DNA from: Candidatus Omnitrophota bacterium
GTDB taxonomy: Bacteria > Omnitrophota > Gorgyraeia > Gygaellales > Profunditerraquicolaceae
Direction: 5' to 3'
DNA length: 64,000 nt
NCBI GenBank assembly: GCA_023247825.1
Contig: JAHFFR010000002.1
Span: 4,972-68,971, forward strand
Shown: in pieces, positions 38,004 through 58,652 of the stretch
Layout of the letters: every line of letters begins with the position of its first letter
How positions within the stretch are numbered: position 1 is the first letter of the stretch
Translations under genes and position numbers: made by a program
The notes under the pieces: generated by a model
What the model was told of the DNA's origin: nothing
Seen by the model: the letters and a program-made list of their open reading frames with translations, nothing else
Databases searched by the model: none

Positions 38004-38577
<574 letters not shown>

Positions 38578-38659
38578 TTCATACTGTTGTACTTTTTTAG
38601 TCATTTTCTTTACCTTGCCGGCTTCACAGAGCCGGGCTTAAAGGACCTTTTGTTGATTA

Positions 38660-38700: not shown

Positions 38701-39033
38701 TTAGTAATCCCTGCGCGCGGCATAAGTGAAATGTGAAAAGTAGTTCCGCCACAAACTTTCGGTAGACATAAACTGGTTTGATCCGAAGAAATAATCTACA
38801 ATGGCTTCCCTTACACGGGTGATTTCTTTAAGATGATTAGAATTTCTGATGCCTTCCAAAGTCAAATCTATTAATTCAAGAGTTCGTTCAAAAGCCTTCT
38901 GGCTATAATCGGCATTGTTCTTAGCCCGCCATTTAAGCGCACGCTCAACTTCACTCCCGATATTTGCCATTTGTTCCAGGAATGATAACTCCCCCCAGCG
39001 GCCTGCCGCAAGATCTTTATGCTGATAACTCAT
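38701..39033 (-). CDS. Hypothetical small helical protein, partner of the DUF5674-like gene
   Basis: 110 aa. It overlaps the upstream gene by 4 nt (ATGA-type coupling). No catalytic motif recognised. Confidence 0.5.
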   Translation of the reverse strand: MSYQHKDLAAGRWGELSFLEQMANIGSEVERALKWRAKNNADYSQKAFERTLELIDLTLEGIRNSNHLKEITRVREAIVDYFFGSNQFMSTESLWRNYFSHFTYAARRDY

Positions 39034-39371
39034 CGCTTAATCCTTCTCTCAACAATTTCAATGATCTTCCCGCGTATTTCTCCATTTTGTACGCCCCGGC
39101 TTTTATTACCCTGCGATGGACGCATATTAATCATAGAATCAAACTCGATAAATTCATTACCCTTTATTTCCGGATAGAAATTAATACCCCAAAGGCTTTT
39201 CTGTTTTGAGCCGTCTTCTAAGAGCAGCGCCTCTAGATCAGAATGAAGCTCCGCGTCAAGCGCGATAATTTCTCTATCAACATCAACAACTGCTTTTACC
39301 AAATCCCCAAAAGTGGCAGCGGCCATCTGCTTAAGTTCATCAAGCGATAATATTTTTGTTATTATTTTCAT
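39030..39371 (-). CDS. DUF5674-like protein
   Basis: MKIITKILSLDELKQMAAATFGDLVKAVVDVDREIIALDAELHSDLEALLLEDGSKQKSLWGINFYP matches my recollection of the DUF5674 N-terminal pattern. Confidence 0.55.
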   Translation of the reverse strand: MKIITKILSLDELKQMAAATFGDLVKAVVDVDREIIALDAELHSDLEALLLEDGSKQKSLWGINFYPEIKGNEFIEFDSMINMRPSQGNKSRGVQNGEIRGKIIEIVERRIKR

Positions 39372-39406
39372 ATCATTGATTATACTCTCAAAGGCAACAT
39401 CTGCAA

Positions 39407-39439
39407 GTATTTTACCACGATTAATCCCGCAACCCGCTT
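39407..39439. repeat. 33-bp direct repeat, copy 1 (GTATTTTACCACGATTAATCCCGCAACCCGCTT)
   Basis: Identical to 40616-40648. On the minus strand it contains TGGTAAAAT (extended -10-like), upstream of the DUF5674-like gene. Confidence 0.9.
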
Positions 39440-39498
39440 ATAAGAAGCCTGCAATTCTTCGAAATAAACCAAAAACCCAGAAACACCCTTTGTTTTCC

Positions 39499-39906
39499 TT
39501 ATTTTGGAAGGCTGGATAACGTCCAACTATAGAATCTTTCTGATAGCTTTAATATATCAATAGCCTCTGTTTGATGGAACTCTCGATTTTCATAAGCTAT
39601 GATATTTTTCTTAGCAATAATTCTCTTCAGTGTAGTAATCTCGCTGCCTGTTCCTTTCTGAGGCAAGCGTGTAAGCAGGCCCGCTGCTTGCGTATGATCT
39701 TCCCCTATTGAGCGTATGCCCAGGTGAAAAACCAGCATAGCATCGCAACAGGATATAGCGCAGTGCACAGCGTTCAGGCCTACCGCAGTCCACTTGCCGG
39801 AATCTCTTGCTTCAAGCATAGTGTCAGAGAAGTCATTTGCTTTCTTTAGATAAATCTTATAATCGCTTTTTTCTACTGCTTTTGTCTTCAGCTTCTTGGG
39901 GGTCAT
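39499..39906 (-). CDS. HEPN-domain protein (putative toxin of a HEPN/MNT pair)
   Basis: 135 aa, helical, with an Rx4-6H-type motif RSIGEDH. It overlaps the MNT gene by 4 nt. Confidence 0.65.
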   Translation of the reverse strand: MTPKKLKTKAVEKSDYKIYLKKANDFSDTMLEARDSGKWTAVGLNAVHCAISCCDAMLVFHLGIRSIGEDHTQAAGLLTRLPQKGTGSEITTLKRIIAKKNIIAYENREFHQTEAIDILKLSERFYSWTLSSLPK

Positions 39907-40529
39907 AATATCCTTTCAAGCTGCTTACCATAAATGACCTTATTGGTTTTTAATATGTTCTTGATTACGGCAAGTCCTTTTTTATACTTAGATTTAAATT
40001 CCGCTTCCGTATTGATATAAGCAGAAAGAGTGTTCCCAAATTCCACGCTAATCTTCTTATCCATCTCCTCAAAAAGTAGTGCGGTTTTAGGCTTGGTTTT
40101 TAGATCTTTTATAATGACAATAAGGTCTATATCGCTTGCCGGGTGATCCTTGCGGACACTTACACTCCCAAATAAAGCAATGCTTATAATATCTTTCTTT
40201 ACGCTTGAAGCAGATACCTTTCTTTTTATCACAGAAAAAATATGACTCAATATCTTTTCTTCGCTAGTAAATAAAGGCTGCAGTAAACCTGAAACTGTAA
40301 AATTATTCTTGTTTAAGGTATAGACATGGGTTTTGCCTATATTACGCAAGAAGAGAACTCCTTCTCTATTTAGGCCCTGCAGTGCCTTATGAGCCGTGGC
40401 GGGAGTTACCCCTATTTCTCTGGCTATCTGACGGCCATTCCACTCCGCGCTTGTCTTACACAGAAACCGCAGGATTTTAACCTTCGTCTCATTATCTAAG
40501 ATCTTGTCTAAAGGGTTGCTGATTTTCAT
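39903..40529 (-). CDS. Winged-helix plus minimal nucleotidyltransferase (MNT) fusion protein (putative antitoxin)
   Basis: N-terminal wHTH (ILRFLCKTSAEWNGRQIAREIGVTPATAHKALQGL), then the nucleotidyltransferase motif LFGSVSVRKDHPASDIDLIVII. Confidence 0.7.
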   Translation of the reverse strand: MKISNPLDKILDNETKVKILRFLCKTSAEWNGRQIAREIGVTPATAHKALQGLNREGVLFLRNIGKTHVYTLNKNNFTVSGLLQPLFTSEEKILSHIFSVIKRKVSASSVKKDIISIALFGSVSVRKDHPASDIDLIVIIKDLKTKPKTALLFEEMDKKISVEFGNTLSAYINTEAEFKSKYKKGLAVIKNILKTNKVIYGKQLERIL

Positions 40530-40615
40530 AAATGCGCCTTTTATTGTTTAACTTACTGAACAGTTGTTTAGAAAACTAAACAAAGCTTAACACTACGGAT
40601 TATATATGTCAAGAT

Positions 40616-40648
40616 GTATTTTACCACGATTAATCCCGCAACCCGCTT
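40616..40648. repeat. 33-bp direct repeat, copy 2
   Basis: Identical to 39407-39439. It lies between the giant-gene stop (40699) and the MNT start (40529). Confidence 0.9.
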
Positions 40649-40698
40649 GTGCGCCGTAATGACGGTGATGTAACAATAGTTAATACGTTTGTATTAAT

Positions 40699-43600
40699 TT
40701 AGGGGTGGGCGGCCTCTTCTACCCTAGTCGAAGAGGCGGTTTTCTCTTTCATATTTTCTGCCATTTGTTCCGTAAATAACGCTGTGGATACGAAATTTGC
40801 TTGAGGATTTTTCAAAGTATCTATTATTTTGGCTATTTTTTCGGCATTATCTTCCAATGCTATATTTTGCATTAATTCAATGGTCTTGGTTTTAAAATCG
40901 GTATTATGTGTTAACCTGCCGGCACTTTCCGGAATATGGGTAGCTTCATGGCAAACTCCCAGGATCAACCCTCCGATAAGTTCTCTTGCCTCAGGCTCAT
41001 CTACCTCCATTGTGCCTTTGAGAAGACGGCTTAACTGTTCAATTCTGCGGTTCATTCCTGCAAGATTCCATACAATTGTATCTGAACCTCTCCAGGTATA
41101 GGCAGAAGCCCCTCTTTCCAAATCAGCGGTAAACATAACCTTTATTTCTTTTCCCAGCAATAGACTTGCTGTTTTACTCAGGAACTCAGCCAACAAAGAG
41201 TAAATAACGAATTCAGGGTAGTTTTTTAAAATATCCGGGGCAAATGGGCTTAATTGTGTTATCTTCTCAAGTTCGATTTGACTAACTTTGCCATTGCTAT
41301 CACCGCGTATTTTTCGCATTAACTCATTTCTTTTACGAGCAAGCTCCTTGGCTAAAGCAGGAGGCATACCCTCTATAGAAAGCTTTCCGGTAGCTATTTC
41401 GATTATTAATTGTGTTATGGACATATCCTTATGAACGGGAAACACTGAGATAAGATAAACTAATTTATCCTTGTCAGCGCTATATTTGTCGATATCTAAT
41501 TTTTCCAAGCTGCCCTTTCGGATATTCTGTAAATCCTCGCGGACATCGTCAGGACATCGCGCCTCCCAAGTCAACAACACTTCCGGATCATCAAAATCAT
41601 AGGGGAATAATTCCACGACCTCTCTTAAGCCATCTATATACAATCTAGCAGCTGCCATTATTGCAGCAGCAAAAGTTGCTTTTTCCAGCTCTTTTAATTT
41701 TTCATCGCTTAAAGTTAGTCCTGATCTATCGCTAATCAATTCTAATTTATTGGGCAAATCAATAATTATTCCGTGCTTTAAAAGTATCTCAAGTAAAAAT
41801 GGGGGAATAGCTTTTACATATTGTTCATTGATAGAACCGACATAGAGTTGTTTATGCGTTACCGCGCGCCTATCCGGATGATGATAAAAGGAGAGCTTTC
41901 CATAAGTTGTATCGACCCAAGAAAGCAAGTCCTCTTCTCTAAAACTGCCTTTATTCAGCGCGTTGCCATTTAAGGTAATCTCTAAGATATTTTTATCAAT
42001 TAAACCTACGTAAAGAGCTGCTTTCTTCAGGATATAAGAGAGCTCGGCTTCGCTGTTTCCTTCAACATTCTTTATTACCTCAATCTCTGTGCCTTTATAC
42101 TGCTCTGGCTTCTGGAAAATGCTTACTTTTATATCAGTGGTTTCCTGTTTTGTATTCCGTATCGGCTTTAGGGAAACATAAATAACCTGCCCATCGCCTA
42201 AAGAGGTTTTTACTTTTACTTCTTGGGCATCTTTTAGGTTAGTAAGAAAACCTCGGCCGAATCTTCCTGTCAGCCTCTGGTCATCCCTCTTATCCGAAGC
42301 TCCAGGATTTAAAAGAAATTGCAATAATTTTACCGCGTCCATGCCAAAATCATCTTCAAATGTCAGGATAATTCTTTTTTTGTCCCCGCTAATTTCTGCC
42401 TTAATATTTAATTTGCCTTTTCTTCCCTGCCTTATGGCCTCATCGCGGGTATTTTGGCCGTTTTCTCTTATGTTGATATAGGGTGCGATATTCTGCTGAT
42501 CAACGCTTGTTTGAATATCACGTTCATTATATTTACGGCCAAGAGGATTAATGGAAATTTTTCCTTTATTGATTTCTTCCAATAATTTTTTTAATGTAGC
42601 GATATCCGCTGATTTACCTTCTCCATTTATTAAGTTGATAATAAATGGCAGTAAGGATAGAGAGAACTCTGTTGGCGCCGCTTTGCTTTTACGGTCTATC
42701 CAATTCAAATCCAGCATTTCAAATTTCGGCTCTATATAGTCAGAAAACTTGAGTTGAGGGGGAATATCATTGTATTTTATTATTGTTGACTTGAGAAAAG
42801 CGGAAGATTGTAGAAACATAAACGGGTTTTTCGACAGAGCCGCAACCATCCCAATATTGGAATCCCACGCCTCATAATCTCCTCTTTGGCCCAGAATAAA
42901 TTCAATCAAGGTATCTAAAACTATGCCTGCGATTGTTGTCTTAGGGAGATATTTCTTATTCAATAAGAATATAGGCCCATTTTCTATATCGTTGCTAATT
43001 AGCACAAGGCCGATATTTTCGTCCTGGATATCTATTGCATAAATTACAGCATTTACATTTGGAACCCATTCAATCTTATTATTTGCTTCTTTATCTAAAC
43101 TAAATTTTTTAAGCGGGATGTAAAAACCATATTTTTTTAAACCCGGCCGATACCCCAGAGAAATGAGTTTCGAAAAAACCTGCGGGTGTATAAGAACTGC
43201 TCCGTCTTTGGCCTGTTGCAGCTTATCGATATCCGGAATAAATATTATATTATTTTCTTTGGCCAGGCCAAACAATCTTTTATATAAATAATCCAATAAT
43301 TTATCTTCACTGGACTTATTCTCTTCATCCAATCTTTCCAATAAGGGAACAAGGCCGTTTATGGTGCGCCAATCTGCCTGCGCAAGTATTTTCTCAACCA
43401 GCTCTTTAACTATCGCGCGGGCTTTAGCATTAACCTCTATCTGATTCCTTGCCCTCGGCACAAGGCTGGGTTCGGATAACTCTACCGCTAATTTCTTGGG
43501 AATATTCTTGCCGATCAGCGGAATGCTAAAAATCTTCACGCCCATAATGGTCAAAACGACTTCAGAATGCTCGCTAGAATCAGTTTCCTTGACTAACGCC

Positions 43601-46600
43601 TGCGCGCTCCCTGAGGTAATAAATCTAAATAATGACAAGTCATTTATCAATACCTTCTGGTTATTATAATCTACATAAATTTTTGCCCTCTGGTTATAGC
43701 TTAAGGCGTCTTTTATCTCTTTTACTACACTTTCAGGATTAAAGCTGCTTTTAATTAAAACCTCTGTTCCGCGATTCCTATCAATATTCTTTAGAGGGCG
43801 GATAGTTATGTATAGATTAGCTATCTCCATATTATCCTTAAATGTATAAACTACTTCATAACCATCCTTGCTTGTTGAGGTATAGGTGCGCACAATTAAT
43901 TCATCACCCGGTTTTTTAAGTAAATTTAGCAAGGAGTAAAAACCTACCCCAAATTGCGCTACCGCGCCTTCTTGGCCTCGGCTACCGGATATTTTCGGAA
44001 CGACAAGATAAGCTATAATTTCACCTAAGTCCATGCCGCCTGCTTTATCAACTATCGCAACATTATTTTCCCGAACTATTATATCTACTTCCTTGAGGTA
44101 GCTTCCTTTAGAGATAGCATCAAGGCTGTTTGTAATAGGCTCGACAAGCGGCCTATTGTCCGCCTTCTCAAATTGACGCTTGATTATATCCTCAAGCTCT
44201 CCTTTCCAACGAGACGCATCGTTTATACCAGTAAGTTTTATTATTACCTCAATTAGATTTCTGTTCTTCCCAAGAAGCCACTTTCCAGCATCCGAAGAAT
44301 ATTTTTCTATGTCGTCCGACCCTAGATTCTTAGCTAACCGAATCTTAATGCTATGGGATATTTTGCCTAATAAATCTTTAATAAGACTCTTTATTTCTAC
44401 CGCATCATCAAGCGCCCGCCAACCCTTCCGACCCCCGGAGTCGGAATTGGTTACCTGCTTCTCCTTTATCTCCTTCGTCAACTCCCTGTCTTTTTCCCCG
44501 AATACTCCTCTTTGCAGTGCCCTTAGGAGATAATGGGGATTCTTAGGGTCTTTGTTAGCGATGGCAAGGGATTCGCCTTTAAGCCCGATTTTCGCTATTT
44601 CCTGATTTGTCTGTTTATTGATAATAACAAGCTGGTTTGCTTCATTAAGCTTAAGTTCTATGGCTTTGCTGTCTATTAAGTATTCACCTATTTCATGGAA
44701 TACAGCTACGGGGTTAGAGGAGAGGTCTTGATGCAGAGTAATTATATTATCCTGGCTTGAGGAAAAACCAAAGAGGTCTTCGATCAGGGTAGAAAAAGTA
44801 TAGAATTCCGGGGGTGACTTTTGTAGGATACCGAGGAACGCTTCTAAGATTTGACTCTGTTGGGGATTTACCTGGATTAAATCCTGTAATGGTTTAATTA
44901 GCCCCTGATTATCTACCGGAGTAAGCTCTATTTCTTTTGACACCTTAACGTTCTCCTTGGTATAGCTGACCTTAAGGGATTTCTTATTATCCTTTTGGAT
45001 TACTTGTTCTCCCTTGGCAAGCTTGCCGATTTGGGAAGAGTCGGCATTAGGCTGCCCAAGGTTTCTGATTGGCTCAGTTTCTGCCTTCAACACCTCCTCC
45101 TTAAGCTCATTTACTTTAATTTTAACCACAGGCCTATCTGTTATAGATATATTAATCTTACCAGTACTTGTTAATTCGTTACCCAAAGCATCTATCACCG
45201 CTGCGAATTGATTAGCCCGGACAGAATCTATGTCGTTTTTAATCAACTGCCTTATCTCTTCTTTGTGAACATTTAAATTATGGAGCATCTCCTCCGCGCC
45301 TTGGTTAATATATGTGTCCACATCTTCTATCCCCCGCGGCTCGCCGGTTTCCCTTAAAAGATTCATGAAGGATATATCACTTTCGTGCTGCATTTCAAGA
45401 TTCTCGCCGAATTCATATACAAATGAATCTTCCCAATCTATTCTTATGATTCCCTTATCGCTCAATAACATATGCCTTTCTGCAATATCCCCTGCTCCAA
45501 GCGCGCGGTCTAAAAGTTTTATTGCCCCTATCTCTTTAAGTCTTTCTTTTGCAAATTCAGGGGATTTAAAAATTGTTTCTAGACCTTTATCAGCAACAAA
45601 GTCTCTTCTCAAGCTTCTAAAAGCAATCCTTTCATGCTTAACAGGTTCAATTAACAGAAAATCTTTATCCTTTTTTTCTTCCAGAATATTCACATCAGAA
45701 TGCGGGAGATTTAATAAATCTGAAATCTTGGTAATAATTATTTCATTACGAGAACTGGATTTTTCTGTAAGCTTTACTAAAAAGACCTTCTCTTCCTGGG
45801 TCTTACTGGATCTTACATTTGCTTTAAATATGGGATTTCTTCCTTCCTGTTCAACAGAAGTTTGCCCCATTAAATCATACCCCAAGACATCGAATTGCTC
45901 ACCTTTCCAAGTAATATTTTTTAATTTTAAGACACTGGAAAACGTGTCAAAAAACTTATTAAAGGAATCGTCTGCTTCACGTATCTGGTTATCAGCTAAT
46001 CTATTATAGCCTACGGTATCAAACTCATTCAGTAACCCCTTATTAAATCTGAAACTTGTAAATTCATCGCTAAACCCACCGCCATAAGAATCTTTATATA
46101 ACGCATATCTTAAGTATACTTTTCTGGCAGCCTTAGGAATTTCCTCCCAATGTTGAATAACATTATTCAAATACCTGTTTATTCTTTCCACTGGAGCGTA
46201 TCGCAACGCACTATCAAGGTAATAATTATCAATTAAGTTTGTTTTTATTATATCTAACGGGAATTTATCTCTTTCCACGACTTCCGCTAATTGTTTAATA
46301 TTAAGTAGGGCTTTATCAATCTGGCTGGATATTTTATCAGGGGACATACCTCGATAAAAAAGAGATTTTAAAGTACCAATGCTTATCCGGCTTCTTATTT
46401 GTGAAACAAAATTATCTGCTAATCCCTGCGGAGCTATTAAAGGCGCCCGCTCTAACTGCTGTTTTAGCTGAAATACCGGGCTAATCTTTAAAGAACTTGA
46501 TTCGTCACCCTTACGCGATAAAGGATTCGACAATGAATTTTTAAAGCGAGACGCGATATTCTTAAATTTCGCAATCAATGAAAACTTGGAACTTGCTGGA

Positions 46601-49239
46601 GAAGAAATTATTTTCGATATTGCTGTTTCAGAAACCGGCATTACGGCTTTATTAATTTGCTGTTGCTTAGGCGCCTTAAAAACATCTTTATGCTTTGTCT
46701 CTTGCATATAACTCTGGAAGCTCACCAACGGCATACTATATACGCCATTTTCTCCTTTGATCAATTCAACCCTATTATTCTTCGCCCACTCCTTAAGATC
46801 CGGCGCAATTTTATCAAGATCATAAACCTCCTGAATAACTGTTTTTCCTCCCGCTTTTAAAACTACATTTACTGCTTTTATCCCCTTTTGTTTTTCTTCA
46901 GCTCTAAAGCCTATGACAAATTCCGCTGCTTTTTCGGACGATTCAAAGTTAAGCTGCCCCTGTTTCCCGATTGGCTGCGAAACAGTTTCTGGTATGTAAT
47001 TACTAAAGCTTGTTGGTTGATTGGGAATGGATGATTTTAGTCCTTCTGCAGAATTTAAATTAGGCACTATAATATTTCCATTATAATTATATGCCCCTTG
47101 CCCTAAATACTTCCCTTGAGGAACGGTGCTATGAATTTCCTGACCCGTCGTTGTTAATGCTTCCGCTTCATTAACTCGATCTCTTGCATTGTTCAAAATA
47201 GATCCTGTTGGATTAAATAAGGCGGGCTGGATAGGATTTTTTATAGTAGGGGTTATTCCAACCTGCGCGATTGGTGTTACATACTTACCGGAATAAGCTA
47301 TATTAGAATCAGACATAGAAGCTGACAAAGAAGTTTCTATTACGGCTCCGGCGGGGGAGGTAACGGAATAAGAAACCTGAGACATAGGCATTGAATTCGG
47401 CGCCCCGGCCGCCACTTGTATTGGGGAAAAACCAGCTATTTTATTTACGGCATCAGAAACTCCTGCTGCAAGAGGATTGATAAAGCTACTTACCACATTA
47501 GAAGCAAAACCATCTATTCCGGTTCCAGAAGATGCGGTTGATCCCTGGTTCTGCCGGTATTTATCTATAGTTGCGCTTATTCTGTGAGAAAAAATTGCGG
47601 GGTCGATTATTTCTCCGTGAGTCTTATCAAATAATTCTTGAAGCACTTCAGATTCTGTTCCTGTAATTCCTATATGAGCAAGAATAGCTCCGGGAAGATA
47701 TTCCTGAATCGCCTCTTCTTTAATGAACGTATTTAGTTTGAGCATTGCTCCTTTAGTAGCCCATTTACTGCCGATAACAAGCTCTTTATCCCCCAGCCAG
47801 TTTTCGAAAGGGCCTAAAATAGGAGACCGCTGAAGAATGGGGCCTAAAAAGGGTTGGGACGCGGCTACGCCTAAACTAAAAAGATAAGTTTTATTAATTG
47901 AAAAAGGTAATTTCCATTTAAAAGGCAGGACCCCGGTTAAATTCGTGCCCCCTTCTTCTTGGCTTAAAAAAGGAACTGAAGTTTGGTAAGCTTGGGCGCT
48001 CAATTTCAAGGCAGCGCCAGAAAAGCTATTAAATTTGGGGATATAGAATATACTAATACTTTTTTCATCTCCGCCTAAAACAGTGTTAACTGTCCCGAGC
48101 AGACCTGAGGTAAGAGTATTAAATAAAGTAACATCCTTAGTTATGCCTATTGTGCGGGGAACCAAATTCAGCGGATGCAAGCCTTCCAAAAATTCTTTTC
48201 CAGCAACCTTTAATCCAGGCATTAAGAGTTGTCCGCTTACTGCCTTAGCTCCCTGATAAGAAAAAGTTTTTATTCCCTGTCCGGTAGTGACTTTAGCAAT
48301 ATCCTTAGAAAAAGGGAGCATTATATCCTTAACAACTTCTCTGGTAGCTAACTTGGGAAGAAAAGATTTTATTTCTCCTAATGTAGCTCTTTCAAAAATT
48401 GCCTTGCCTGCTGCTGATACCGGACCTAAGCCGGGTAAGCCCACGATCTGATAAGCTTCTCCGGTAAGGTTATAGGCAATTTTATAATCCGGTGATAAAC
48501 CTAACTGATCGATCCCTGCGTATACAGGTTTTCTCGCCGCTTCCACTAAGGCATAATTCTTGACATAGGTTAACGCGGAATCCGCGAACCATTTTCCTCT
48601 TCCTAAAGATTCTGGGGCAAGATCTATAGGTTTAAGGATGTTGTAAGCTTTAGACCCTGCCCACTCAAACCCTTGCGCAGCTTTTGGTCCTATATACTTA
48701 GCTATTGTTGGCAATTCTAATCTAATATACGAAGTAACGGGTTTAATAATTGGAGAGATGGTTTTTCCGATAACCGGTAAACCTACTTCTATCGCACCTA
48801 AAACTGCTTCCTCGGGAGTTATAGAGGCAACACCTTGTTTTGTAGAAATATACGGATTGGCTAAATCTTTGTCTATTGATAATTTCGTTGCAATATTAAT
48901 TGGAAGGGGTATCCAATTGTTGAATGTTTGGCCTATTGCTTTTGCTTGAGGACTACCCGCCTTAACTCCTGTAATCATTTCCATGGCGGGATTGGTTACC
49001 CGACCAACGGCATAGAAAGCAGCGCCAAAAGGACCATGAGAATCATACGCTCTGGCTGCGTTAGGCATTGCCTGGCGATTGCCGGCTGTCCAGGAATTGT
49101 AACTGCTTTTTGCGCCATTATAAACATTGGAGAGGCGGGATTGAATTTTTTCAAAAGCTCCAGCGTAAGCTAACTGCTCAAAAGGAAAAATAAATATTAG
49201 TAACCAAGCAATAATTCTTTGCCAACTTTTATAGTTCAT
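40699..49239 (-). CDS. Giant (2,846 aa) secreted or envelope multidomain protein
   Basis: A single uninterrupted ORF of 8,541 nt. It has a Sec-type signal peptide and internal kinase-like, GHKL (two sets) and HExxH motifs, listed below as separate features. Confidence 0.85.
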   Translation of the reverse strand: MNYKSWQRIIAWLLIFIFPFEQLAYAGAFEKIQSRLSNVYNGAKSSYNSWTAGNRQAMPNAARAYDSHGPFGAAFYAVGRVTNPAMEMITGVKAGSPQAKAIGQTFNNWIPLPINIATKLSIDKDLANPYISTKQGVASITPEEAVLGAIEVGLPVIGKTISPIIKPVTSYIRLELPTIAKYIGPKAAQGFEWAGSKAYNILKPIDLAPESLGRGKWFADSALTYVKNYALVEAARKPVYAGIDQLGLSPDYKIAYNLTGEAYQIVGLPGLGPVSAAGKAIFERATLGEIKSFLPKLATREVVKDIMLPFSKDIAKVTTGQGIKTFSYQGAKAVSGQLLMPGLKVAGKEFLEGLHPLNLVPRTIGITKDVTLFNTLTSGLLGTVNTVLGGDEKSISIFYIPKFNSFSGAALKLSAQAYQTSVPFLSQEEGGTNLTGVLPFKWKLPFSINKTYLFSLGVAASQPFLGPILQRSPILGPFENWLGDKELVIGSKWATKGAMLKLNTFIKEEAIQEYLPGAILAHIGITGTESEVLQELFDKTHGEIIDPAIFSHRISATIDKYRQNQGSTASSGTGIDGFASNVVSSFINPLAAGVSDAVNKIAGFSPIQVAAGAPNSMPMSQVSYSVTSPAGAVIETSLSASMSDSNIAYSGKYVTPIAQVGITPTIKNPIQPALFNPTGSILNNARDRVNEAEALTTTGQEIHSTVPQGKYLGQGAYNYNGNIIVPNLNSAEGLKSSIPNQPTSFSNYIPETVSQPIGKQGQLNFESSEKAAEFVIGFRAEEKQKGIKAVNVVLKAGGKTVIQEVYDLDKIAPDLKEWAKNNRVELIKGENGVYSMPLVSFQSYMQETKHKDVFKAPKQQQINKAVMPVSETAISKIISSPASSKFSLIAKFKNIASRFKNSLSNPLSRKGDESSSLKISPVFQLKQQLERAPLIAPQGLADNFVSQIRSRISIGTLKSLFYRGMSPDKISSQIDKALLNIKQLAEVVERDKFPLDIIKTNLIDNYYLDSALRYAPVERINRYLNNVIQHWEEIPKAARKVYLRYALYKDSYGGGFSDEFTSFRFNKGLLNEFDTVGYNRLADNQIREADDSFNKFFDTFSSVLKLKNITWKGEQFDVLGYDLMGQTSVEQEGRNPIFKANVRSSKTQEEKVFLVKLTEKSSSRNEIIITKISDLLNLPHSDVNILEEKKDKDFLLIEPVKHERIAFRSLRRDFVADKGLETIFKSPEFAKERLKEIGAIKLLDRALGAGDIAERHMLLSDKGIIRIDWEDSFVYEFGENLEMQHESDISFMNLLRETGEPRGIEDVDTYINQGAEEMLHNLNVHKEEIRQLIKNDIDSVRANQFAAVIDALGNELTSTGKINISITDRPVVKIKVNELKEEVLKAETEPIRNLGQPNADSSQIGKLAKGEQVIQKDNKKSLKVSYTKENVKVSKEIELTPVDNQGLIKPLQDLIQVNPQQSQILEAFLGILQKSPPEFYTFSTLIEDLFGFSSSQDNIITLHQDLSSNPVAVFHEIGEYLIDSKAIELKLNEANQLVIINKQTNQEIAKIGLKGESLAIANKDPKNPHYLLRALQRGVFGEKDRELTKEIKEKQVTNSDSGGRKGWRALDDAVEIKSLIKDLLGKISHSIKIRLAKNLGSDDIEKYSSDAGKWLLGKNRNLIEVIIKLTGINDASRWKGELEDIIKRQFEKADNRPLVEPITNSLDAISKGSYLKEVDIIVRENNVAIVDKAGGMDLGEIIAYLVVPKISGSRGQEGAVAQFGVGFYSLLNLLKKPGDELIVRTYTSTSKDGYEVVYTFKDNMEIANLYITIRPLKNIDRNRGTEVLIKSSFNPESVVKEIKDALSYNQRAKIYVDYNNQKVLINDLSLFRFITSGSAQALVKETDSSEHSEVVLTIMGVKIFSIPLIGKNIPKKLAVELSEPSLVPRARNQIEVNAKARAIVKELVEKILAQADWRTINGLVPLLERLDEENKSSEDKLLDYLYKRLFGLAKENNIIFIPDIDKLQQAKDGAVLIHPQVFSKLISLGYRPGLKKYGFYIPLKKFSLDKEANNKIEWVPNVNAVIYAIDIQDENIGLVLISNDIENGPIFLLNKKYLPKTTIAGIVLDTLIEFILGQRGDYEAWDSNIGMVAALSKNPFMFLQSSAFLKSTIIKYNDIPPQLKFSDYIEPKFEMLDLNWIDRKSKAAPTEFSLSLLPFIINLINGEGKSADIATLKKLLEEINKGKISINPLGRKYNERDIQTSVDQQNIAPYINIRENGQNTRDEAIRQGRKGKLNIKAEISGDKKRIILTFEDDFGMDAVKLLQFLLNPGASDKRDDQRLTGRFGRGFLTNLKDAQEVKVKTSLGDGQVIYVSLKPIRNTKQETTDIKVSIFQKPEQYKGTEIEVIKNVEGNSEAELSYILKKAALYVGLIDKNILEITLNGNALNKGSFREEDLLSWVDTTYGKLSFYHHPDRRAVTHKQLYVGSINEQYVKAIPPFLLEILLKHGIIIDLPNKLELISDRSGLTLSDEKLKELEKATFAAAIMAAARLYIDGLREVVELFPYDFDDPEVLLTWEARCPDDVREDLQNIRKGSLEKLDIDKYSADKDKLVYLISVFPVHKDMSITQLIIEIATGKLSIEGMPPALAKELARKRNELMRKIRGDSNGKVSQIELEKITQLSPFAPDILKNYPEFVIYSLLAEFLSKTASLLLGKEIKVMFTADLERGASAYTWRGSDTIVWNLAGMNRRIEQLSRLLKGTMEVDEPEARELIGGLILGVCHEATHIPESAGRLTHNTDFKTKTIELMQNIALEDNAEKIAKIIDTLKNPQANFVSTALFTEQMAENMKEKTASSTRVEEAAHP
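40936..40950 (-). other. HExxH (HEATH) motif near the C-terminus of the giant protein
   Basis: LGVCHEATHIPESAGRLTHN. A possible zincin-type site; the motif alone is weak evidence. Confidence 0.3.
42150..42480 (-). other. GHKL ATPase motif set 2, sacsin-like
   Basis: N-box ENGQNTRDEA (42436-42465), G1-like EDDFGMD, G2 TGRFGRGFLT (42241-42270). Confidence 0.55.
43800..44160 (-). other. GHKL (Bergerat-fold) ATPase motif set 1, Hsp90-like
   Basis: N-box EPITNSLDA (44116-44142), G1 VDKAGGMD, G2 AQFGVGFYS (43933-43959). Confidence 0.65.
45400..45810 (-). other. PI3/PI4-kinase-like catalytic core motifs within the giant protein
   Basis: KVFLVKL (Lys strand), FLLIEPV (hinge-like), LLDRALGAGDIAERHMLL (compare GxGDRHxxN) and GIIRIDWEDSF (compare IDFG / IDHG). 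Confidence 0.4.
49159..49239 (-). other. Signal peptide of the giant protein
   Basis: MNYKSWQRIIAWLLIFIFPFEQLAYA|GA: positive n-region, hydrophobic core, AYA cleavage-type motif. Confidence 0.6.
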
Positions 49240-49623: not shown

Positions 49624-50277
49624 TTATATAACGATTACGAACTCACCTCGAGGTTTGCTTTTAGCAAGCTTCTGCCGGATAATTTCAGGGCTGGCGCGCA
49701 GAATCTCTTCAAATTTCTTAGTTAATTCCCGGGCCACTGCAATTTCTTTATCACCATAAACTGTGTTTATGTCTTGGAGGCTAGCCAAAATCCTGTGGCA
49801 GGATTCATAAAAAACCAGGGTGCAGCCTAAATTTTTTAGTTTTTCCAGATGGTTCCTGCGCGCACCAGCGCGATTAGGCAGAAACCCGGCAAAATAAAAT
49901 TCGTGCGCAGGCTTTCCAGAAAGCACCAGCGCATTCACAAATGCCGCAGCCCCCGGAATAAAAGTCATCTCCAGATTATTTTTTATCGCCAGATTGATTA
50001 AATTATACCCGGGATCAAGTATGCCCGGGGTACCGGCATCGGAAACCAAGGCGATATTTTTTCCTGCTTTTAATAAATCAACCAGGTATTCACCTTTAGT
50101 AAATCTATTATGTTGGAAAAAACTTGTGGTAGGAGTTGTAATTCCGTAGTGGGTAAGCAGAATTTTGGTGTGCCGCGTATCTTCGCAGGCAATCAAATCA
50201 ACGCTTTTTAAAACCTCCGCTGCCCTAAGCGTTAAGTCTTTTAGATTGCCAATGGGAGTGGCAACGATATACAGCAT
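49624..50277 (-). CDS. rsmI: 16S rRNA (cytidine1402-2'-O)-methyltransferase
   Basis: LYIVATPIGNLKDLTLRAAEVLKSVDLIACEDTRHT and ARELTKKFEE. Confidence 0.9.
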   Translation of the reverse strand: MLYIVATPIGNLKDLTLRAAEVLKSVDLIACEDTRHTKILLTHYGITTPTTSFFQHNRFTKGEYLVDLLKAGKNIALVSDAGTPGILDPGYNLINLAIKNNLEMTFIPGAAAFVNALVLSGKPAHEFYFAGFLPNRAGARRNHLEKLKNLGCTLVFYESCHRILASLQDINTVYGDKEIAVARELTKKFEEILRASPEIIRQKLAKSKPRGEFVIVI

Positions 50278-52115
50278 TATTCAACGGTTACCGACTTTGC
50301 TAAATTACGCGGCTGATCCACATCACAGCCGCGCTTGACGGCAATATGATACGCCAATAATTGCAGCGGCAGGGCCACTAAAAGCGGAGAGAATATTTCT
50401 TCTGTCTTGGGGATATAGATTACTTCGCGGGTTAATTCTTTGATTTCCCGGTCTCCATCTGTGGCAATCGCGATGATTTTGCCTTTGCGTGAGCGGATCT
50501 CCTGGATATTCGAAACCATTTTTTCATAAACTTTTGAGCTGGGCGCAATGCAGACTACCGCCCGGTATTCATCAATTAAAGCAATCGGCCCATGCTTCAT
50601 CTCACCGGCCGCGTATCCTTCAGCCGGTATATAAGAGATCTCTTTTAATTTTAGGGCCCCTTCTAACGCAGAAGGATAATTTATGTTCCTGCCGAGATAT
50701 AAAAATGACCCCAAATGTGAATGTCTTCGGGCAAGGACGGCAATACTTTTTGCGCATTTTAAAATCTCAATCTGCTGCCCGGGGATCTTGCGTAATTCAT
50801 CTAATAATTTTTTAACTCTTGCCTCCGGCAAAATACCCCTAACCTGCGCCAGATAAAAGGCGAATAGATAAAGTGCGGTCAATTGAGCAGTGTAAGCTTT
50901 GGTTGAGGCAACACCGATTTCGGGCCCGGCATGGGTATAAATTATGCCGTCGGATTCCCGGGTCAATGTCGAACCTAAAACATTGCAGATAGAAATTACG
51001 GTTGAACCGCGCCTTTTAGCTTCTCTTATTCCGGCCAGGGTATCCGCTGTTTCACCTGACTGGCTTATGGCAATCACTAAAGTATCCGGGCCGATCAAAA
51101 GATCGCGATACCTGAATTCACTGGAGACATCGATATGCGCAGGAATCCCGCAAAGCGATTCCAGCGCGTATTTCGCCACCATCCCGGCATGGTATGCCGT
51201 GCCGCAGGCAACGATAAATATTTCCCGTGCCGCTTTCAATTTGGCTTCCGGGATATTCTGCTCTTTGAAAAATATCCTGCCCGTTTCCTTATGAATCCGG
51301 GAATTAATCAGGCCTTCTAAAATCTTGGGCTGCTCATTAATTTCTTTGAGCATAAAATGCGCAAACCCGGCTTTCTCCGCCTGGGCAATATCCCAATTAA
51401 TATGTGTAGTTTTTTTAAAAACAGTTTTCCCGTCAAGATTGCTAATCTTAAAATTATCTTTATCTAAAATTGCTACTTCGTTTTCATCGAGGAAAACAAC
51501 TTCCTTGGTAAAACCCAGGACTGCCGGAACATCCGAGGCAAGAAAATTTTCACCTTTGCCTACGCCGACAATTAAAGGACTGCCCAGGCGGGCCCCGATC
51601 AGTTTGTTCGGCTCTTTTGACGAAATTATCCCGATAGCAAAAGAACCTACTAATAATTTAAGCGCTTTACATACCGCATCCTCGAGAGGAATATTTTTAT
51701 AAAATTTTTCAATCAGGTGCACAATAACTTCGGTATCTGTCTGGCTGTTAAAAACATGGCCTTCCTTAATCAGCTGCGCTTTAAGGGATTCGTAATTCTC
51801 GATAATCCCATTATGCACAATAGCAATTGAACCTGAACAATCATGATGGGGATGGGCATTGGCCTGAGTAGGTGCGCCGTGTGTTGCCCAGCGAGTATGC
51901 GCTATACCGACCAGGCCGCTAAGGGGCTTGCTTTTAACTAATTTTTCTAATGCGCTGATTTTCCCGGGGGATTTTCTGATGGATATGCTGTTTTTTTGGG
52001 GGGAGATCAATGCTATACCGCTGGAATCATAGCCGCGGTATTCCAGGCGTTTTAAACCGGATAATAAGATGGGCTGCGCTTCTCCTTCACCGATATATCC
52101 GACTATTCCGCACAT
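50277..52115 (-). CDS. glmS: Glutamine--fructose-6-phosphate aminotransferase
   Basis: N-terminal MCGIVGY, two SIS domains, and the C-terminus NLAKSVTVE. Confidence 0.95.
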   Translation of the reverse strand: MCGIVGYIGEGEAQPILLSGLKRLEYRGYDSSGIALISPQKNSISIRKSPGKISALEKLVKSKPLSGLVGIAHTRWATHGAPTQANAHPHHDCSGSIAIVHNGIIENYESLKAQLIKEGHVFNSQTDTEVIVHLIEKFYKNIPLEDAVCKALKLLVGSFAIGIISSKEPNKLIGARLGSPLIVGVGKGENFLASDVPAVLGFTKEVVFLDENEVAILDKDNFKISNLDGKTVFKKTTHINWDIAQAEKAGFAHFMLKEINEQPKILEGLINSRIHKETGRIFFKEQNIPEAKLKAAREIFIVACGTAYHAGMVAKYALESLCGIPAHIDVSSEFRYRDLLIGPDTLVIAISQSGETADTLAGIREAKRRGSTVISICNVLGSTLTRESDGIIYTHAGPEIGVASTKAYTAQLTALYLFAFYLAQVRGILPEARVKKLLDELRKIPGQQIEILKCAKSIAVLARRHSHLGSFLYLGRNINYPSALEGALKLKEISYIPAEGYAAGEMKHGPIALIDEYRAVVCIAPSSKVYEKMVSNIQEIRSRKGKIIAIATDGDREIKELTREVIYIPKTEEIFSPLLVALPLQLLAYHIAVKRGCDVDQPRNLAKSVTVE

Positions 52116-52134
52116 TGAGCACCTGCAATTTTAA

Positions 52135-52209
52135 TGACCCTGACGGGATTTGAACCCGTGTCGAGAGCTTGAAAAGCTCTTGTCCTGGACCAGGCTAGAC
52201 GACAGGGTC
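52135..52209 (-). tRNA. tRNA-Glu (anticodon TTC), CCA not encoded
   Basis: Reverse complement GACCCTGTCGTCTAGCCTGGTCCAGGACAAGAGCTTTTCAAGCTCTCGACACGGGTTCAAATCCCGTCAGGGTCA. The anticodon loop is TTTTCAA. Confidence 0.9.
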
Positions 52210-52217
52210 TATTAGCC

Positions 52218-54650
52218 TTATTCACTTTCCTCCGCGATTACCGGAGCAACACAAGAAACTCGGTCTTTATCTTGCAGCTTAATTAACCGTACGCCCTGCG
52301 ATGAACGTCCGGTTTCCCGGATATCTTTTATCGCGCAGCGCAGGAATATTCCGTTTTGGGTAATTACCATCAGCTCATCTTTATCGTTTACGGTTTTTAA
52401 ATTTACTGCCTGGCCGTTCTTATCGGTAACTTTAATATTAATTACTCCTTTGCCGCCGCGGCTGGTTAAACGATACTCATCAACAGTCGTGCGTTTTGCA
52501 AAACCTAACTCCGTCACCGTTAAAATGGTCGAGCCTTTTTGCGGGACCACCATATCAATAACTTCGTCTTTCTTGGCTAAAGATACCGCGCGCACCCCAT
52601 GAGCGCCTCTGCCCATTTCGCGCACCTTGTCTTCGGGGAACCTTATTGCTTTGCCTTGCTTGGTTCCAATAAGTAACTCCTGTTTTCCATCGGTCATCTC
52701 AACCCCGATTAACGTATCATCCTTGTCGAGGGTAATACCGATAATGCCTGCCTTGCGCGGATTACCGTATGCATCAAGCTTAGTCTTTTTAACTTGGCCG
52801 AGCTTAGTCACCATCACCAAATATTTATCCGCGGAGAATTCTTTTACCGGAATTGTCGAACTGACCTTAGCCGTAGCCTCCATCTGCACAAGGTTAATAA
52901 TCGCCTTTCCTTTGGATATGCGGCTTGCCTGAGGAATCTCATAAACCTTTAACCAGTGCACCTGGCCTTTATCGGTAAAGATCAATAGGTAATCTTTGGT
53001 CGAGGCAACAAAAAGATGCTCACTGAAATCTTCTTCTTTTAATTCGGCTCCGGTTGCGCCAGTCCCCCCGCGCTTTTGTTTGCGGTAGGAGCTTACCGGC
53101 AGGCGCTTAATATAGCCTCCGTGGCTAATGGTTACCACCACGTCCTCGTCAGCAATCAAATCTTCAACTTCCAATTCCTCTGCCTCTCCAACGATATCTG
53201 TGCGGCGGTTATCACCGTATTTTTTCTTTAGCTCTTCCAACTCTTCTTTAATAATTGCTTCGATCTTTTTAACTGAAGCTAAAATTGCCCGGCACAATTC
53301 AATTTTCTTTAAAAGCTCGGCGTATTCGGCGTCAATTTTATCGCGCTCAAGAGCGGTTAGCCGCTGCAGCTGCATTTCAAGGATCGCCTGCGACTGAAGC
53401 TCCGACAATTCAAATTCCTTCATTAAGTTTATCTTGGCGGCATCCACGCTCTTTGAGGTTTTAATAACTTTAATGATCCGGTCGATAAACTTAAGCGCGA
53501 TTTTTAAGCCCTCTAAAATATGCGCCCGTTTTAAGGCTTTGTCTAATTCAAACTGCGTGCGCCTGCGGATAACCACCCGGCGGTGCTCAATATAACAATC
53601 CAACACCTGGCGTAAATTTAAAACCTTGGGCCGGTTATCCACCAGGGCCAGCATAATAATGCCAAAGGTGCATTCCAGCTGCGTGTGCTTAAAAAGCTGG
53701 TTTAACACAATCTGGGATTCGGTGTCGCGCTTAAGTTCAACCACGATGCGCATGCCTTCTTTATCCGATTCATCCCGGATATCCGAAATACCCTCGATTT
53801 TTTTATCATCCACCAAAGCGGCAATTGACTCAATAAGGGTAGACTTTTGCACCTGATATGGAATCTCGGTAAAAATAATCAAATCTTTGCCATTCTTCTG
53901 ATGCTCTACTGTTGCCCTGGAGCGCATCAGGAGTTTCCCCCTGCCGGTCAGATAGGCATCTTTAATCCCGGCTTTTCCGCAGATTAAACCGCCGGTAGGA
54001 AAATCCGGGCCCTTAATATAACGCATCAAATCTTTAATTTCCGCTTCGGGGTGATCGATAAGATAAATAATCGCATCGCATACTTCGTTTAAGTTGTGTG
54101 GCGGGATGTTTGTCGCCATGCCGACAGCAATTCCGCTTGAGCCGTTAACCAAAAGATTGGGCAAGGTAGCCGGCAAGAGTAAAGGTTCTTTTAAAGAAGA
54201 GTCAAAGTTTGGCCCGAAATTTACTGTTTCTTTTTCAATGTCCCCGAGCATCTCGTCGGCAACTGCGGCTAAACGTGCCTCGGTATAACGCATTGCCGCG
54301 GCTGCGTCGCCATCGACGGACCCAAAGTTCCCCTGGCCGTCAACTAAAGGATAGCGCAAAGAAAAATCCTGCGCCATTCTTACCAGGGTATCGTAAATGG
54401 CCACGTCTCCGTGAGGATGGTATTTACCCATGGTTTCCCCGACAATACGGGCGCATTTTTTATAGGGCTTGGAGTGTTCAAGGTTAAGCTCGGACATGGC
54501 ATAGAGTATGCGCCGATGCACAGGCTTTAGACCATCGCGCACATCAGGCAGGGCGCGGCCGACGATTACGCTCATTGCGTAATTTAGATAGGAATCTTTT
54601 ACTTCATCCTCAATATAAACTTCGATTATTTTTTCGTTACGCGTATACAT
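52218..54650 (-). CDS. gyrA: DNA gyrase subunit A
   Basis: [17 protein letters not shown] with the catalytic Tyr, and C-terminal beta-pinwheel repeats. Confidence 0.95.
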
Positions 54651-54652
54651 GA

Positions 54653-57396
<2,744 letters not shown>

Positions 57397-57419
57397 TGCG
57401 CTAATCCCAAGAAAACGGC

Positions 57420-58511
57420 CTAATTAAGGCGCATAGGTAAAACTATATACACATAACCGCTGATACGTATAACCCCGGGCTTCTCCGCGTCAATTAACTC
57501 TAAGTTCACCATTTCTTCGTTCAGGATTTTTAAAACATCCATTAGGTACACCGGGTTAAAACCAATTACCAGCTCCCTGCCCTGATATTCTACCGGTAAT
57601 TCTTCATGAAACTCGCCGACATCAGGCGTTGATTTGGAAATTACCAGTTTATTCTTAAAAACCTCCAATTTTACCGCCTGATAATCCTGTGTAGCTAAAA
57701 GCGCGGCCCTCTTTACTGCTAACAAAAATTTCCCGCGTTCCACCTTCATCTTGTTTTCAGATGCCGGCGGCACAACTTGTTTATAATCCGGGAATTCGCC
57801 CTCGATTAAACGCGATACAATCCCTACGCCGCCTAAATCAAACAACACCTGATTACTGCTGATAACCAAGGATAGCTCGCCTTCATCTTTTAAGTTTCGG
57901 TTTAGCTCCTGTATTGTTTTAATCGGGACAATCATATTTATTTCCACATCTGATTCTATCGGTAATTTCCTTTCAGCAATCGCGAGGCGTTTGCCATCAG
58001 TAGAAACCAAAACCAACACACCCTTACTAATTTTAAAAAGTATCCCGTTTAAAACATAACGCGTTTCATCAAAAGACACCGCAAAAGATGTTAAGGATAA
58101 CGCCTGCTTTAAAACTAACTGCTCTATTTTAATTGCCTTTTTATCTTTAAATTCGGGTAACTTAGGAAACTCTTCTTTAGCCAACCCCATGATTTTAAAC
58201 TGGCACATATCTGAATCTATTGTCACCTGATTATTTTTCTTAGAGGTAATATTAATAACATCTAAAGGGAATTCCTTAATTATATCGCTAAATCTTTTAG
58301 CCGGGACAGTAATAGATCCCGGTTCCTGGATATCCACAGGGATTACACAGGTTATCCCTATATCTAAATCTGTTGCTGTAAGCCTTAAATTATTTGCCTG
58401 ACCGTCAATTAATATATTAGAAAGGATAGGTAAAGCTGATTTTGTGGTAATGACATTTTGTACAGTTTGAATTGCCCCCACTAAACTAGTTTTATTGACT
58501 TTAAACCTCAT
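57420..58511 (-). CDS. dnaN: DNA polymerase III beta subunit (sliding clamp)
   Basis: 363 aa, three-domain clamp pattern with ILSNILI, LTATDLD and a C-terminal MPMRL. Confidence 0.95.
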   Translation of the reverse strand: MRFKVNKTSLVGAIQTVQNVITTKSALPILSNILIDGQANNLRLTATDLDIGITCVIPVDIQEPGSITVPAKRFSDIIKEFPLDVINITSKKNNQVTIDSDMCQFKIMGLAKEEFPKLPEFKDKKAIKIEQLVLKQALSLTSFAVSFDETRYVLNGILFKISKGVLVLVSTDGKRLAIAERKLPIESDVEINMIVPIKTIQELNRNLKDEGELSLVISSNQVLFDLGGVGIVSRLIEGEFPDYKQVVPPASENKMKVERGKFLLAVKRAALLATQDYQAVKLEVFKNKLVISKSTPDVGEFHEELPVEYQGRELVIGFNPVYLMDVLKILNEEMVNLELIDAEKPGVIRISGYVYIVLPMRLN

Positions 58512-58652
58512 TTTTTAATCTCCTTCTATTTATAATTATATAAGATCTTAAAATCGTAATAGTCTTAATGGAACCCTAATTCTGTGAAGAAGAATATAAG
58601 TGTTTACGGTTATAATACTTACAAAAACAAATGAAAGTTAATAACCTGAGTA

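Follow-up and report, generated by a model that had tools for sequence, protein, structure and literature searches.

Cassettes of restriction-modification (RM) genes that carry no mobility genes are known to enter chromosomes by insertion accompanied by a long duplication of the target, a mode in which repeats of more than 30 bp, made from a unique target sequence, come to flank the insert (PMC2853133; Furuta, Abe and Kobayashi 2010). Long target duplication of RM gene complexes was described by Nobusato et al. 2000 (Gene 259:99), as cited in PMC2654758, and we found no example with cargo other than RM systems in the literature searched. In type VII toxin-antitoxin (TA) systems, MNT adenylylates HEPN and neutralises its RNase activity (PMC7641770). 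Here we examine a perfect direct repeat of 33 nucleotides (nt), the 33-mer, in a 64-kb stretch of DNA from a Candidatus Omnitrophota bacterium (the window). One copy lies upstream of a two-gene MNT/HEPN cassette and the other upstream of a two-gene operon that begins with a gene of the DUF5674 family. We read the 33-mer pair as a recombination scar of TA cassette acquisition, in which native DNA upstream of a promoter was duplicated, and give this reading a probability of about 60%. The kind of insertion scar is known; what is new is a TA cassette example in Omnitrophota. Coordinates follow the numbering of the window, and all genes at the locus lie on the minus strand. The repeat copies and the spacers next to them, in the direction of transcription, are:

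40649..40698, minus strand: spacer of 50 nt from the stop codon of a gene for a 2846-amino-acid (aa) protein to copy 2, with no similarity to T60 (below) or to the regions upstream of DUF5674 in relatives
40616..40648, minus strand: 33-mer copy 2, the putatively derived copy, separated by 3 nt from the -35 of the MNT/HEPN cassette that follows it and by 50 nt from the stop of the 2846-aa gene that precedes it
39440..39505, minus strand: T60, the spacer from the HEPN stop codon (39499-39501) to copy 1, of which 59 nt (39440-39498) lie outside the HEPN gene; its homolog in the close relative L084 is the DNA that precedes the single 33-mer there
39407..39439, minus strand: 33-mer copy 1, the native copy, coding strand AAGCGGGTTGCGGGATTAATCGTGGTAAAATAC, ending directly at the DUF5674 -35

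The repeat itself holds up as originally reported. On the plus strand it reads GTATTTTACCACGATTAATCCCGCAACCCGCTT, and it is exact at 39407-39439 and 40616-40648, a spacing of 1,209 nt that leaves 1,176 nt in between. Two independent repeat scans of the window recover the same pair, no third copy with up to three mismatches is present in the window, none arose in 100 shuffles, and the number of exact 33-nt repeats expected by chance in 64 kb is about 3e-11. Because the bases bordering the copies differ on each side (a/t at 39406/40615 and a/g at 39440/40649), the repeat is exactly 33 nt long. The repeat structure is no assembly artefact: an independent ENA contig from ERZ27279977 (L001/L002), which is identical to the window over 10 kb, has the same two copies, and a Logan unitig of 1,236 nt (L003, from SRR14366791) equals window positions 39410-40645 and so holds the cassette together with 30 nt from either copy. 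The end points of this unitig are those at which a k=31 graph is expected to break at a 33-nt repeat, so they are uninformative, and we ruled the unitig out as evidence for a circle or an empty site. No match in genome_contigs, metagenome_contigs or viral_contigs, collections that do not include the source genome, was obtained with a 24-mer core, with a degenerate 24-mer or with a 21-mer across the junction of 33-mer and promoter. With two copies in 64 kb and zero matches in these three public collections, a dispersed repeat is unlikely.

Comparison with close relatives identifies copy 1 as native DNA, because in two contigs without the cassette (L084 and L098) a single 33-mer has matching flanks on both sides. 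L084, a 717-nt contig from the same sampling project, has a DUF5674 gene ~96% identical to that of the window (14/339 differences), preceded by a single 33-mer with 1 mismatch and an identical promoter. Of this contig 252 nt lie upstream of the 33-mer copy; homology to the window runs ~60 nt upstream of copy 1 through T60 (46 aligned columns, 8 of them mismatched, and a further 21 gap columns) as far as the HEPN stop. Past this point L084 carries a gene for a membrane protein that is unrelated to the cassette. L098 (811 nt, 311 of them upstream of the 33-mer copy) has a single 33-mer with 4 mismatches and a 12-nt insertion at its centre, shares 14 nt of the upstream flank, and again has a different upstream neighbour. 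The similarity of copy 2 to L084 and L098 is exactly 33 nt and goes no further. Copy 1, by contrast, has native DNA on both sides. This geometry excludes a simple target-site duplication that touches the insert at either end. Copies do stand on both sides of the cassette, as the original prediction had it, yet the bracketing is not tight on the right, where the 59 nt at 39440-39498 belong to the DUF5674 side. Divergence changes abruptly where copy 1 begins on the left (8/46 in T60 against 1/33 in the 33-mer); this was considered as proof of a crossover and found suggestive only, since the counts are small and promoter constraint could contribute.

The cassette between the copies has boundaries of its own. 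It comprises the following features, again in the direction of transcription:

40584..40615, minus strand: cassette promoter and left junction, with ATC at 40613-40615, -35 TTGACA at 40607-40612, a 17-nt spacer, and -10 TAAGCT at 40584-40589 preceded by TGT
40545..40582, minus strand: two palindromes, TGTTTAG-N4-CTAAACA and a copy with 2 mismatches, between the -10 and the MNT start codon, found by an inverted-repeat scan
39903..40529, minus strand: winged-helix (wHTH) MNT protein, 208 aa; Pfam Polbeta 1.1e-8, NTP_transf_2 and HTH_11; GS-x10-DxD motif
39499..39906, minus strand: HEPN-like protein, 135 aa; R-x5-H motif (RSIGEDH); 4-nt overlap with the MNT gene

The MNT protein matches the NCBIfam model MntA_antitoxin below its cutoff, and the Pfam HEPN match to the 135-aa protein, although full-length, is below threshold (E 0.047). 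The sequence hallmarks of a type VII HEPN/MNT system, namely the MNT nucleotidyltransferase motif, the HEPN R-x4-6-H motif and organisation in one operon, are all present. The HEPN-like protein is predicted to be the toxin and wHTH-MNT to be both antitoxin and autoregulator. The palindromes at 40545-40582 are the only good matches to their motif in the window (0 and 2 mismatches, with none in the 33-mer or in the DUF5674 promoter) and are the likely operator of this winged-helix-fused, MntA-type antitoxin, for which autoregulation is predicted.

Homologous cassettes were found in three unrelated contexts, beside tRNA-Phe (L087), after rpoD (L091) and in a TA-rich island with an integrase fragment (L092). 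Their MNT proteins are 74-75% identical to that of the window and are always followed by a HEPN partner that is 82-86% identical. Similarity among the cassettes spans CTTGACA to the HEPN stop codon, and the alignment shows the shared elements TTGACA-N17-TA[AG][AG]CT and then two palindromes of the TGTTTAG-N4-CTAAACA type. The 33-mer is not in any of these three homologous cassettes, nor do they have terminal inverted repeats in common. A phage origin was rejected, with no relative of the cassette in viral_contigs. Base composition was set aside as evidence of insertion: GC content is 38.9% in the cassette and 42.7% in the window, with GC at third codon positions inside the range of neighbouring genes, so it does not discriminate. 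In L092 the integrase fragment beside the MNT/HEPN cassette is 109 aa long, and a second pair, an NTase with a 132-aa partner, lies there as well.

Both junctions contain short matches. At the left junction the window reads GGTAAAATAC followed by ATCTTGACA, where L091 and L092 have AAAGATACACCTTGACA, giving an ATAC/AAAATAC microhomology; AAAGATACACCTTGACA of L091 and L092 stands where the window has AAAATACATCTTGACA. At the right junction the window reads CTTCCAAAATAA followed by GGAAAAC (CCAAAATAA followed by GGAA), the cassette family has CTTCCAAAATATTAG or CTTCCAGTATAA, and native L084 has AAAACATAAGGAAC; L084 also has AAAACATAAGGAA where the window reads CCAAAATAAGGAA. The right join is within AAAATAA at ~39499-39505, an AAAATA-type microhomology that also creates the HEPN stop codon, and homology among the HEPN genes stops at the stop codon. 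A transposon-type duplication of the 6-nt AAAATA at the cassette ends was rejected, as it is not seen at other cassettes. The cassette is free of mobility genes, and a scan of neighbouring open reading frames (ORFs) turned up no integrase or transposase; the ORFs annotated around the locus (pyr genes, glmS, gyrA, gyrB, dnaN) include no recombinase gene, and three ORFs of 157-412 aa at 33-36 kb have no Pfam match.

The sequences show the repeat, the native state of copy 1, the limits of the cassette, both promoters (through their conservation) and the lack of the 33-mer in other cassettes; from these we infer the following order of events and mode of recombination. In its native place, copy 1, the 33-mer forms a lineage-specific stretch at about -36 to -68, immediately upstream of the DUF5674 -35. 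Illegitimate recombination, helped by microhomology and without a cassette-encoded recombinase, would then have inserted a compact type VII-like TA cassette, reaching from its own -35 to the HEPN stop (~39499-40613), just upstream of the DUF5674 promoter region, and the insertion would have left a second, identical 33-nt copy at the left junction of the cassette. Two routes to this state both fit. The duplication may originally have comprised T60 and the 33-mer (~99 nt; compare the flanked cassette of L085, below), its left copy being cut back later by the frequent rearrangement upstream. Alternatively, the cassette may have come from a relative along with T60, the 33-mer and the DUF5674 promoter, in which case the right end would have been joined by homology and the left end at the ATAC microhomology inside the resident 33-mer. 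As passive effects, the cassette promoter gained the same A-tract-containing upstream DNA, and the two 33-bp copies permit precise loss of the 1,209-bp unit by homologous recombination.

Several points weigh against a scar of cassette acquisition. A strict long-target-duplication model makes all DNA between the repeats insert, whereas here the 59 nt of T60, inside the repeats, are native, so that one has to suppose either a further step or a flank brought in from the donor. No true empty site was found, and the left flank (the 2846-aa gene and the 50-nt spacer) has no counterpart in any DUF5674-bearing relative: the right flank of L084 and L098 aligns, but their left flank aligns with T60, inside the repeats, and not with the left flank of the window. 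The C-terminal 400 aa of the 2846-aa gene product have a single homolog in a collection of 5.8 billion proteins (L099, 70% identity, on a 1.3-kb Logan contig); what follows that homolog downstream is unrelated to the window and not syntenic. Selection or gene conversion could likewise account for the 100% identity of the copies. Among the parallel cases described below, some may be insertions between pre-existing dispersed hairpins, such as the 25-nt hairpin present four times in L018 or the repetitive extragenic palindrome (REP)-like palindromes of L020. Finally, the count of 33-mer copies covers the 64-kb window, and further copies elsewhere in the source genome are possible.

The promoters of the two modules bear on whether the repeat has a regulatory role. 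The DUF5674 operon and its promoter comprise:

39372..39406, minus strand: DUF5674 promoter, with -35 TTGCAG at 39401-39406, a 16-nt spacer, -10 TATAAT at 39379-39384, and 7 nt to the ATG at 39371
39030..39371, minus strand: DUF5674 protein, 113 aa, first gene of the two-gene operon; Pfam DUF5674 9.6e-37
38701..39033, minus strand: DUF5674 partner, 110 aa, 4-nt overlap with DUF5674, no family assigned

The arrangement TTGCAG-N16/17-TATAAT-N6-7-ATG stands ahead of the start codon in 32/84 DUF5674 loci, and the promoter of the window is identical in L084 and differs at 1/35 positions in L098. The spacing from -10 to ATG suggests that the transcript may be leaderless. In those 32 loci the -35 is preceded by a block G[TC]AAA[TA][TG][AG]C, and the last ~10 nt of the 33-mer (GGTAAAATAC) are this conserved A-tract block. 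Since each module has its own predicted sigma-70-type promoter just 3' of the repeat, the repeat itself is unlikely to be a promoter. The copies are indeed upstream of both modules, as had been proposed, at 0 and 3 nt from the -35 elements, although the real promoters lie 3' of the copies and outside the repeat. The element TGGTAAAAT in the 33-mer, first taken for an extended -10, does not bear out as one: TAnnnT occurs in only ~10/32 of the orthologous promoters, 13/32 have C at the first position, and all those 32 loci have a far better candidate, the conserved promoter, just downstream. Likewise, the weaker similarity GATTATA...CAAG noted beside the repeat is no extension of the duplication. 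It consists of each promoter's own -35 (TTGCAG or TTGACA) and TATAAT-like bases, and the cassette's spacer and -35 are kept in homologs without the 33-mer.

In distant relatives (L017 5880-6000, L018 1590-1714, L008, L023, L031, L034, L037) the DUF5674 -35 makes up the 3' (descending) arm of a strong hairpin of terminator type, the U-tract of which serves as promoter spacer, and a second hairpin precedes it (fold z -7 and -4); to judge from these folds, hairpin and promoter form an overlapping terminator and promoter. The terminator-like hairpin has decayed in the clade of the window (z ~0), and the 33-mer sits at its variable loop position.

A functional cis-element, either an UP element or the site of a regulator, that co-regulates the DUF5674 and MNT/HEPN operons and whose identity is kept by selection or gene conversion would account for the position of the copies right beside a -35 hexamer, 0 and 3 nt away. 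In sigma-70 promoters the proximal UP subsite lies at about -40 to -42, and GGTAAAATAC matches the block in 32 DUF5674 promoters that has its A-tract there; the 33-mer further holds a GCGGGTT/GCGGGAT direct repeat and a GATTAATC palindrome. We nevertheless consider such an element unlikely. The central 23 nt are unconserved even in the close relatives L084 and L098: GATTAATC becomes GATTCATC in L084, and L098 has GCGGA, GAATTC and the 12-nt insertion. Because neither the palindrome nor the second GCGGG is kept, and because the 33-mer (1/33) has diverged from L084 no less than the DUF5674 gene has (14/339), comparison with the relatives argues against a conserved binding site. The offset of 3 nt shifts the helical phase relative to the -35, homologous cassettes without the 33-mer have their own promoter and operator, and the wHTH operator motif is in neither the 33-mer nor the DUF5674 promoter. 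Co-regulation through a shared promoter or operator, one of three explanations offered in the original prediction, is at odds with the position of the conserved promoters (TTGCAG/TATAAT and TTGACA-N17-TAAGCT) and of the predicted wHTH operator at 40545-40582, all outside the repeat. As a structured RNA the 33-mer was rejected, for it is no hairpin, with a fold z of ~0 for both the copy 1 region and its L084 ortholog.

Still less likely, in our view, is that the 33-mer is a site-specific recombination core, attL/attR-like or integron-like, at which a recombinase encoded elsewhere swaps two-gene cassettes. Identical direct repeats do surround a mobile-looking TA cassette, different cassettes stand upstream of DUF5674 in different lineages, many genomes have an adjoining tRNA-Asn gene or its 3' fragment, a classical integrase target, and the integrase fragment of L092 lies beside a homologous cassette. 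Yet the 33-mer accompanies the cassette in no other genome, every flanked cassette has a repeat of its own local sequence, and the hot spot described below holds different cassettes, each with its own local repeats and not this 33-mer, which speaks against the dedicated module-swap site once proposed. Copy 1 has native DNA on both sides and so offers no clean attR, and the annotated ORFs of the window include no recombinase gene. The 33-mer has no ARAGORN match and no Rfam match, either at the gathering threshold or at E<=1, so a tRNA/att origin was rejected, the only Rfam signal nearby being the sub-threshold PyrR site at 38545-38648. Its fold is not significant (z ~0), unlike that of a structured attC site, and the three public collections contain no match to it. 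Least probable of all, we think, is that both copies are older than the cassette and form a local or dispersed intergenic repeat between which the cassette inserted by chance. Chance insertion between repeats is a recognised class (PMC2853133), and Omnitrophota carry dispersed hairpins (the 25-nt hairpin of L018, and a 34-nt palindrome in L020), and the count of the 33-mer covers the 64-kb window. Against this, the L084 and L098 contigs have a single copy each, the window lacks a third, the 33-mer is no hairpin, and old copies are unlikely still to be 33/33, given that a 96%-identical relative already shows a difference in its ortholog. The original prediction is partly supported overall: of its three options, a duplicated cassette boundary left by recombination fits best, given the single native copy in L084 and L098 and the homologous cassettes without the 33-mer.

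Cassettes flanked by repeats recur in related Omnitrophota DNA. When related loci totalling 0.84 Mb were scanned for exact direct repeats at distances of 0.3-6 kb, repeats of 40-172 nt that are 78-100% identical came to light, each of its own local sequence. The cargo of the six flanked cassettes is TA or TA-like in 4, an SPFH gene in 1, and hisB with DUF5665 in 1:

L085, 32-786: CopG-type antitoxin two-gene unit; ~95-nt repeats, 79-89% identical; immediately upstream of the DUF5674 promoter
L018, 2502-3506: TA-like two-gene unit; 119-nt repeats, 79% identical
L087, 2791-4189: same MNT/HEPN family as in the window; 94-nt repeats, 82% identical
L027, 595-3758: MNT-like, HEPN and AbiEii genes; 40-65-nt repeats, part of which is the 3' fragment of a tRNA
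L026, 4649-5898: SPFH gene; 172-nt repeats, 94% identical; directly upstream of DUF5674
L029, 310-1611: hisB and DUF5665; 63-nt exact repeat

The stretch upstream of DUF5674 is, on comparison of these sequences, clearly a rearrangement hot spot. Among close relatives all upstream neighbours are different, and the breakpoints fall 0-66 nt from the 33-mer. Two genomes (L035 3880-3955, L049 5678-5753) have an entire tRNA-Asn(GTT) gene immediately before the conserved block, and in L017, L037, L023, L031, L034 and L008 only the last ~10 nt of tRNA-Asn (GGGGAGCCA) are left upstream of DUF5674, with unrelated DNA before them; this pattern suggests that DNA has integrated repeatedly beside DUF5674, at the 3' end of tRNA-Asn. 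In L027, two copies of the tRNA-Asn 3' fragment flank the 3.1-kb TA island. Short dispersed elements between genes, hairpins of terminator-like or REP-like form, recur after different small modules: in L092 at 1505-1532, 5067-5094 and ~3702, in L020 at 8107 and 10209, and in L018 at 1588, 2442, 3637 and 3655. It is conceivable, though we hold it doubtful, that compact promoter-to-stop TA cassettes of Omnitrophota regularly spread through insertions that need no recombinase and duplicate from tens to over 100 nt of target beside resident promoters, with the DUF5674 upstream region as a preferred landing pad and the repeats then allowing excision, amplification or exchange. If true, the long-target-duplication mode known for RM systems would extend to TA systems.

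On the minus strand the gene order is the 2846-aa ORF, the 50-nt spacer, copy 2, wHTH-MNT, HEPN, T60, copy 1, DUF5674, its partner, pyrR, pyrB and pyrC. The 2846-aa ORF (40699-49239) shows a faint HATPase_c_3 signal only. DUF5674 has 7,993 homologs, the best ~80% identical, and no mention of the family was found in the literature searched. The partner gene is downstream of DUF5674 in 80/80 fetched loci (Omnitrophota and a few others; L004-L083), with variable neighbours and none with pyrR adjoining the unit; amino-acid identity across these loci is ~67-81% for DUF5674 and 55-85% for the partner. The AlphaFold model of DUF5674 (pLDDT 73.5) has no significant PDB match, and the protein has no sequence matches to solved structures; the idea that it is a hidden nucleotidyltransferase, which would make both modules related, was rejected for want of any such match to the model or the sequence. 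Just upstream of pyrR, a sub-threshold Rfam match to the PyrR binding site (38545-38648; 41.6 bits against a gathering threshold of 54, E ~1e-3) is overlapped by a terminator-like hairpin at 38554-38578, and the element at 38545-38648 is a probable pyr attenuator. Since glmS, gyrA, gyrB and dnaN lie together on the minus strand (49624-59990), the locus is probably close to the replication origin.

Taken alone, the repeat is probably no more than a small scar. Its value is as a dated, clean example of a TA cassette free of mobility genes entering a core chromosomal region, ~20 kb from dnaN and gyrBA, and in showing that a flanking-repeat signature known from restriction-modification cassettes recurs with TA cassettes in an uncultivated phylum. 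The annotation of the locus is corrected as well, with the promoters now defined by their conservation and a likely operator predicted. If the pattern proves genome-wide, flanking long direct repeats could reveal recent gene gains in metagenome-assembled genomes of Omnitrophota and predict which cassettes are open to loss through simple deletion between homologous repeats. Most worth pursuing are the flanked cassettes that recur around DUF5674.

How does the locus compare with the systems described so far? Identical direct repeats on either side of an insert are also the mark of transposon target-site duplications and of attL/attR pairs. Duplications made by transposases, however, are of ~2-15 bp and abut both ends of the insert, whereas here the repeat is 33 nt, 59 native nt stand before copy 1 and there are no terminal inverted repeats; and unlike the cores of integrase attL/attR sites, the 33-mer is not shared with other copies of the cassette and comes with no recombinase gene that we could see. 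The gene pair itself is like the type VII HepT/MntA systems (PMC7641770, PMC11586414) in having the MNT gene first and overlapping HEPN, in its GS-x10-DxD and R-x5-H motifs, and in being a small mobile two-gene unit found in variable contexts. It differs in the N-terminal winged helix of the MNT protein and the conserved operator palindromes, from which autoregulation is predicted, and in a HEPN protein that falls below the Pfam threshold.

Two modes of recombination provide the nearest parallels for the junctions. One is homology-facilitated illegitimate recombination in natural transformation, reportedly the subject of work by de Vries and Wackernagel in 2002 and by Prudhomme et al. in 2002. 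As in that process, one end of the insert here would have been anchored in homology (33-mer, promoter and DUF5674) and the other joined at a microhomology of 4-7 nt (ATAC/AAAATAC), the donor flank T60 being imported with the foreign genes. The joint in this case would lie inside the anchor, giving a duplication and not the usual deletion. The other, and the one that the geometry of the 33-mer resembles, is insertion with long target duplication. Between the repeats lies a complete addiction module (MNT, HEPN, own promoter and operator) in an insert of less than 20 kb, as PMC2853133 describes for that mode. Unlike the RM cases, the cargo is a TA pair, no empty site matching both flanks was found, and the 59 native nt inside the repeats would mean that the duplication was truncated or the event more complex. 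The likenesses are that a small addiction-type cassette without its own transposase or integrase is flanked by repeats of more than 30 bp of local target sequence, that this sequence is otherwise unique in the window and the collections and single-copy in insert-free relatives, and that the length of the repeat varies from case to case, being 33 nt here and 40-172 nt at the related loci.

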